A stretch of DNA of 8,262 bases from a virus (lineage: Duplodnaviria > Heunggongvirae > Uroviricota > Caudoviricetes): the IMG/VR virus record IMGVR_UViG_2529292873_000013, one strand, 5' to 3'. The first letter of the stretch is position 1, and the number at the start of each line of letters is the position of its first letter. The position numbers and the translations under genes were made by a program. The notes below the pieces were generated by a model, which did no database searches, was not told the DNA's origin, and was given only the letters and a program-made list of their open reading frames with translations. Positions 90 through 621 of this stretch are shown one piece after another.

Positions 90-621
90 TTATCTGTCGA
101 TTCCCCAGCACGCCAGCGCGCTCTCCTGGTCACGCCGTGAACCTGACCGTAGCAGTTATTTGAGCGGATACGGCAGTCTCTGCCACCGTCCTTAATCCAC
201 CAGCGAATCGCCTCACAGGCACCTTTTCGATCGCCTGCATTAATTCGTTTATAAAACGTCGACGGGAAGCACTTACCGGGGCCAATGTTGTACGGACAGA
301 ATGACGCGATCCCCGCTTTCTGGGGTTCGGTCAGCGGCACTTGGATGTTTTTCTCCACCCATGCCAGCGCCTTGTCACGTTCGATGGCATTAACCCGGTC
401 GCATTTTTCCTTTGACAGCTTCATGCCAGGAATAACAGGCTTACCATCCACCGGGTGGCACCACGGCAGATGGTCCAGATCCCCGCACCATCACGGTATG
501 CCGTGGTGTGGTTACCTTCCTTTTCATCCAGAAACTGGTCGAGGATTTCAGGCGCAGACGCACCTGCACCAATCAGCGCCAGAACGGCAGCCGACAGGCC
601 GTATCTGATTTTTGCGTTCAT
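90..621 (-). pseudogene. R: SAR endolysin (phage lysozyme R, GH24-type) interrupted by two single-base frameshifts
   Basis: Track ORF 421..621 (MNAKIRYGLSAAVLALIGAGASAPEILDQFLDEKEGNHTTAYRDGAGIWTICRG) is an N-terminal signal-anchor-release domain plus catalytic region. It continues in another frame as track ORF 50..451 (DGKPVIPGMKLSKEKCDRVNAIERDKALAWVEKNIQVPLTEPQKAGIASFCPYNIGPGKCFPSTFYKRINAGDRKGACEAIRWWIKDGGRDCRIRSNNCYGQV). A third frame from about 140 gives SRRDQESALACWGIDR and a TAA at 90..92. Frame changes sit at short homopolymers near 451..452 and 140..141. The spliced length is about 177 aa. Confidence 0.8.

Follow-up and report, generated by a model that had tools for sequence, protein, structure and literature searches.

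In P21 lysis cassettes the pinholin depolarises the membrane, whereupon the tethered SAR endolysin is released to the periplasm and refolds into an active enzyme, and spanins complete lysis. The P21 endolysin R (PDB 3HDE, 3HDF) and its DLP12 counterpart RrrD (4ZPU) are lysozymes of the GH24 family PF00959 with a Gly/Ala-rich N-terminus. The 177-aa lysozymes WP_000992146.1 and WP_000992148.1 of the lambdoid prophages of E. coli O157:H7 EDL933 and O145:H28 are encoded by open frames in closed genomes, in the gene order holin-YdfR-lysozyme.

Here we analyse a stretch of 8,262 nt (hereafter the window) that has this same gene order, but whose lysozyme copy is two bases short. As an exact search with the 66-aa endolysin fragment showed, the window is the entire contig AETZ01000006.1 of a 2011 draft assembly (GCA_000187325.3) of E. 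coli O157:H- strain H 2687, a sorbitol-fermenting O157 isolated in Scotland in 2003 (accession AETZ00000000; PMC3271280). An initial annotation of the window had described an intact pinholin and a SAR endolysin split by two frame changes, and had taken the split, if real, as a sign that the lysis cassette may be dead and the prophage cryptic. The comparisons below suggest instead, with a probability of about 0.8, that this is an ordinary lysis gene with draft-consensus errors and that the breaks are not biological.

Results

Layout of the contig

The window is laid out as a lambdoid late region, encoded on the minus strand (Table 1). Its genes are, in order, hokD with sok, a 92-aa ORF, DUF968, RusA, the Q antiterminator, a TerB-family pseudogene, DUF3927, STnc100, the NanS-p sialate esterase, DUF1378, DUF826 and the lysis genes, and the succession Q antiterminator, NanS-p, pinholin, YdfR and endolysin is the usual one for the late operon of a lambdoid prophage. 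In Stx phages, tRNAs and the stx genes sit between Q and NanS-p; in the window, this interval holds no stx genes and no tRNAs (a tRNA scan found none). The spanin genes lie past the contig end, as in EDL933. The best complete-genome relatives of the window reach only 97.8-98.1% identity, and among its closest matches, none was identified as the complete genome of a sorbitol-fermenting O157:H- strain.

Table 1. Positions and state of the features of the window discussed in the text.
Feature	Position	Strand	State	Match or accession
SAR endolysin gene (P21 R / RrrD type, GH24 phage lysozyme)	90..621	minus	532 nt, in three frames; intact alleles 534 nt	PF00959
Frame break 2	138..143	minus	one base absent between 140 and 141; coding strand GGT-N-TCA to GGTTCA, codon 161	
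Frame break 1	448..456	minus	one base short in run 451-452 (450|451); coding strand CCCGGGTGG to CCCGGTGG	
C-terminal endolysin fragment ORF	50..424	minus	124 aa; passes the true stop in the wrong frame	EFX20954.1
N-terminal endolysin fragment ORF	421..621	minus	66 aa; 57 native and 9 out-of-frame codons	EFX20955.1
YdfR (DUF1327)	672..1016	minus	intact; between holin and endolysin	PF07041, E 1.8e-46
P21-type class II holin (pinholin)	1021..1236	minus	intact; 71 aa	PF04971, E 8.5e-33
Central block (DUF826, DUF1378, NanS-p esterase, STnc100, DUF3927, TerB pseudogene, Q)	1250..5750	minus	internal control	
STnc100 sRNA	4027-4193	minus	between Q antiterminator and NanS-p	Rfam, 101.6 bits (gathering score 47)
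TerB-family gene	4365-4727	minus	internal stop	
RusA resolvase gene	5783..6162	minus	one-base deletions at 5860, 6151	
DUF968 gene	6168..7213	minus	one-base deletions at 6466, 7131, 7139, 7166	
hokD toxin ORF and sok	7660-7984	minus	51 aa inside a 70-aa ORF	sok RNA, full-length match, 116 bits

Two closed genomes, EDL933 and CV261, have the TerB-family gene in the same place with a pseudogene annotation; it is therefore, unlike the endolysin, a real and shared pseudogene. The hok stop codon is followed, 7 bases downstream, by a private one-base deletion (7653). By the contig end, positions 1-70 of the window carry a private 7-bp deletion (after 61) and a private 2-bp insertion (9-10) relative to all copies compared, which would fit a poor consensus at a repeat boundary.

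The endolysin gene is spread over three frames

Translation of positions 1-621 in three frames recovered the endolysin piecewise on the minus strand. Frame a supplies the N-terminus (MNAK...ICRGATR) and then runs into WMVSLLFLA and a stop, frame c carries VDGKPVIPGMKL...NNCYGQV followed by HGVTRR..., and frame b ends the protein with SRRDQESALACWGIDR and the stop codon at 90-92. This pattern is not due to chance, since the three frames join into a complete PF00959 lysozyme (E 1e-24). No single uninterrupted frame covers the gene in the window, whilst an open frame of 177 codons is present in 72 of the 77 distinct alleles of other loci. Alignment to intact alleles, a check that the initial annotation had proposed, showed one base missing at each of the two sites that it had named (near 451..452 and 140..141), so that the need for two frame changes is borne out by both approaches. 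At break 1, in codons 57/58, the coding strand reads CCCGG in place of CCCGGG; at break 2, the column of the missing base is polymorphic among intact alleles, with T or G on the plus strand. Restoring both bases gives a gene of 534 nt and 177 codons, in agreement with the length and the C-terminal peptide first proposed. The two fragment ORFs of Table 1 represent the gene as deposited, the native part of the 66-aa fragment containing the putative SAR segment GLSAAVLALIGAGASAP and the E35/D44/T50 triad.

The repaired protein matches PF00959 with 87.7 bits over profile positions 2-125 of 125, and its residues 9-174 align with both the P21 lysozyme (PDB 3HDE; E 2.6e-17) and RrrD (4ZPU; E 5.1e-17). 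These full-length alignments within one GH24 family include the N-terminus, where residues 8-24 (GLSAAVLALIGAGASAP), the Gly/Ala-rich putative SAR segment, align to the N-terminal segment of P21 R in 3HDE. E35, D44 and T50, in EGNHTTAYRDGAGIWT, have the spacing Glu-x8-Asp-x5-Thr and match the EG, KD and WT positions of the P21 enzyme. The likeness to the P21 system extends to the partner pinholin, a class II holin of P21 type with two possible starts (Met1 and Met4), which lies upstream of the lysin gene. In contrast to the P21 arrangement, a YdfR (DUF1327) gene separates holin and lysin; the similarity to P21 R is moderate only, the window enzyme measures 177 aa against 165 aa and has an extra Cys-rich segment near its C-terminus (RDCRIRSNNCYG), and, unlike P21 R and RrrD, it is interrupted twice as deposited. 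The two identities given in the initial annotation, SAR endolysin and pinholin, fit these matches, as does its statement that the pinholin is intact, and the predicted product is an ordinary lambdoid-prophage SAR endolysin of the P21 R / RrrD type.

The repaired protein is one residue away from WP_000992146.1 (Q for R in KNI-Q-VPL) and two residues away from WP_000992148.1. Its exact 177-aa sequence was not found in a collection of 15 billion proteins, which is accounted for by codon 94 (341-343), CAA (Gln) in the window and AGA, CGG or AAA in the compared alleles. The possibility that this CAA is a column-wise hybrid of CGG and AAA was considered and dropped as evidence, one ordinary substitution explaining it equally well.

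Eleven one-base deletions lie in the repeated flanks

Aligned with the orthologous prophage of EDL933, the contig differs by 166 substitutions and lacks 11 single bases, and single-base insertions are absent. The missing bases fall at 140, 450, 5860, 6151, 6466, 7131, 7139, 7166, 7653, 8022 and 8048, all of them within 1-1250 or 5750-8262 (P ~1.7e-4 under uniform placement), whilst the 4.5-kb central block is free of indels and differs from EDL933 by 6 substitutions. The left flank is a multi-copy sequence: it was found at 12,577 places across 4,323 genomes, as many as 15 of them in one genome. The segment 5750-8262 has 2,513 bases in the window against 2,522 in its top matches, and none of its nine deletions occurs in CV261, OkiPb01717 or UTAK-6. 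A single contig hence holds many lesions of one type that are absent from all references compared, every one of them inside multi-copy, multi-allelic flanks. The two endolysin breaks exist, are private to this contig and belong to this set of one-directional deletions.

The few references used differ from one another at four of the 11 deleted columns (140, 6466, 7139 and 7653), where about one such column would be expected by chance on our estimate. Six deletions fall in identical-base runs of at least 2 bases and two in runs of at least 3, and inside the flanks the proximity of deletions to substitutions is marginal (P ~0.05).

Two further genes are split by these deletions. RusA has lesions of the same type as the endolysin, and another frame encodes its reference C-terminus, QPVSGGRLGVKIYPIMLEGQVKK. 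For DUF968, the reference peptides IVKPGRESM and ESFMKRPKRRR are likewise found in another frame, and three deletions inside 36 nt bring the frame back after ~12 wrong codons. These three (7131, 7139 and 7166) sum to 3 and were considered as one codon loss in a divergent allele; this was ruled out, since IVKPGRESM is encoded in another frame and there is thus no single codon deletion. Pieces of the split RusA and DUF968 genes have protein entries of their own (EFX20963.1, EFX20965.1 and one 96-aa piece).

The case for a decaying prophage

The alternative that survives best, though we regard it as unlikely, is that the frameshifts are real and that H 2687 carries a decaying cryptic prophage with a dead endolysin, rusA and DUF968 and an intact pinholin. 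The deposited sequence does carry the breaks, and several genes are broken on the same contig, as they would be in a decaying element. The TerB-family gene of the same region is moreover a true pseudogene common to complete genomes, and defective lambdoid prophages are numerous in genomes of the O157 lineage. The lesions themselves do not resemble decay: all are 1-bp deletions, with no larger deletions, IS insertions or nonsense substitutions, and the 4.5-kb centre is free of them.

Relaxed selection, as a sign of a pseudogene, was not seen either. Differences between the repaired gene and the allele at the orthologous locus are synonymous in 23 codons and non-synonymous in 2, third positions accounting for 23 of the 26 changes. 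In a comparison with seven other alleles, no substitution was private to the window gene, but two one-base deletions were. Real decay would be expected to leave more private substitutions than indels, and lesions of mixed sizes, and is therefore disfavoured; frameshifts aside, the endolysin allele looks functional. A mosaic model of the repaired gene, built from 72 other alleles, needed 3 switches and left one site unexplained; when real alleles were left out one at a time, the values were commonly 1-2, with a maximum of 21, so this test for chimerism does not discriminate, the value for the repaired gene lying inside the range of real alleles.

Neither deletion was found in complete genomes or in IMG/VR copies, which also speaks against a real pseudogene. 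Amongst 5,426 complete E. coli genomes, the break-1 deletion had no 100% match at 3,269 homologous places, the best of these having 98.6% identity (72 query against 73 record bases) with the missing base as the sole difference. The break-2 deletion had no 100% match at 5,533 homologous places in the same genomes, the best having 97.6% identity (81 query against 82 record bases) with the gap and one mismatch. A gapped-pattern scan of IMG/VR found the deletion in 0 of 121 copies for break 1 and 0 of 81 for break 2, the extra base being present in all, and scans of metagenomes and GTDB representatives, made with deletion-only patterns and without an intact-allele positive control, found neither deletion.

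A pseudogene lesion would be expected to recur in independent assemblies, whereas the exact products of the broken genes occur on 1-2 contigs and the deletion alleles are absent from the complete genomes, IMG/VR copies, metagenomes and GTDB representatives searched. The 66-aa endolysin product is on 2 contigs, and the 124-aa endolysin, 112-aa RusA and 212-aa DUF968 products are on 1 each, against 859 for YdfR, 855 for the holin, 981 for the 92-aa protein and at least 1,000 each for DUF826, NanS-p and Q; these singleton counts are weaker than they look, since modern NCBI annotation deposits no pseudogene fragments as proteins.

The second contig with the 66-aa product is AIFM01000036.1 (L004), from an early draft of E. 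coli DEC4C; apart from the loss of the same base at CCCGGG, its endolysin allele (2195-2727) is EDL933-like. This contig and the window differ by 34 mismatches over 1,230 nt. Since the allele backgrounds in DEC4C and H 2687 are different, the deletion at 450 is not common by descent, which counts against an inherited pseudogene. Against CV261, the DEC4C contig has 99.6% identity with 6 mismatches and 3 gap openings, a ratio that is, judged from the alignment, error-like. The ydfR of the DEC4C contig carries two private one-base insertions.

The proposal of a dead lysis cassette in a cryptic prophage is accordingly not upheld: the breaks are absent from thousands of homologous copies and form part of the deletions in the repeats, and the remaining variation of the allele is that of a working gene.

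Possible hotspot or recoding

Far less probable is that the CCCGGG(T)GG of codons 57-58 forms a true hotspot of recurrent deletion, or a phase-variable switch, through which the endolysin is lost repeatedly across strains. What draws attention to the site is that one-base losses lie within 2 nt of each other in three draft-derived sequences, namely H 2687, DEC4C and the IMG/VR locus L148 (5583-6115), in which a CV261-type G-run is one base short, one base from break 1. The closed genome CV261 (L002) has a T-to-G substitution at the same spot, which turns GGGTGG into GGGGGG at lysozyme codon 58 (V58G). The run is only 3 bases long, however, well below known contingency tracts, and the deletion occurs at none of the 3,269 complete-genome places. 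In other draft-derived IMG/VR copies (L039, L011 and L170), the gene is interrupted at nt 105, 336/341 and 438, sites unrelated to this one, which points to a background of draft errors, and the break at 140 and the nine further deletions would require a separate cause. Were the hotspot real, the lysin would have been switched off independently, with the pinholin spared, in H 2687, DEC4C and the source of L148, and resident prophages would undergo a reversible or repeatable loss of host lysis.

Programmed recoding, by ribosomal frameshifting or transcriptional slippage that restores a single protein, can practically be discarded: a complete protein does result when the three frames are joined, but nothing specific favours it, two separate events would be required, neither site shows a slippery motif that direct reading could recognise, 0 of ~130 sampled copies and none of thousands of genome copies share the split arrangement, all of these having one open frame at the two sites, and the break at site 2 is found in no homologue and that at site 1 only in the DEC4C draft.

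Discussion

The reading that we prefer is that of an ordinary lysis gene whose draft consensus probably contains errors, and we infer the technical cause of the dropped bases as follows. Both contig ends correspond to sequence present in many slightly differing copies per O157-type genome. Reads of several near-identical prophage copies may have been merged into one consensus at the contig ends, and that consensus would have lost bases where the copies disagree or at short runs. The dropping of bases would fit flow-space consensus calling on the 454 platform, 454 pyrosequencing being the method that we take to have been used for the H 2687 draft genome of 2011. Plain homopolymer under-calling was rejected as the full cause, runs of at least 3 bases holding only 2 of the 11 deletions.

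Under-called bases have led to false frameshift annotations elsewhere, for example in the first C. autoethanogenum genome (PMC4687164). That case resembles the present one in that there were deletions only, genes were split into two ORFs and the errors were gone in independent sequencing (PMC4687164). It differs in that >90% of the C. autoethanogenum errors lay in homopolymers of >4 bases and occurred genome-wide (PMC4687164), whereas the deletions in the window are seldom in runs (2/11 in runs of at least 3 bases) and are all in the repeated, multi-allelic parts of one contig. The small number of deletions in runs, together with their confinement to repeats, suggests a merged-repeat consensus and not plain homopolymer error.

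If the breaks were real after all, the sorbitol-fermenting O157:H- clone would have a further defective lambdoid prophage, which would be a routine finding. On the preferred reading of draft-consensus errors, the case illustrates that in the short repeat contigs of early drafts, clusters of one-base deletions can mimic pseudogenes. The endolysin, RusA and DUF968 were each deposited split, and contigs of this kind are unfit for calls of prophage decay unless reads or closed genomes are consulted.
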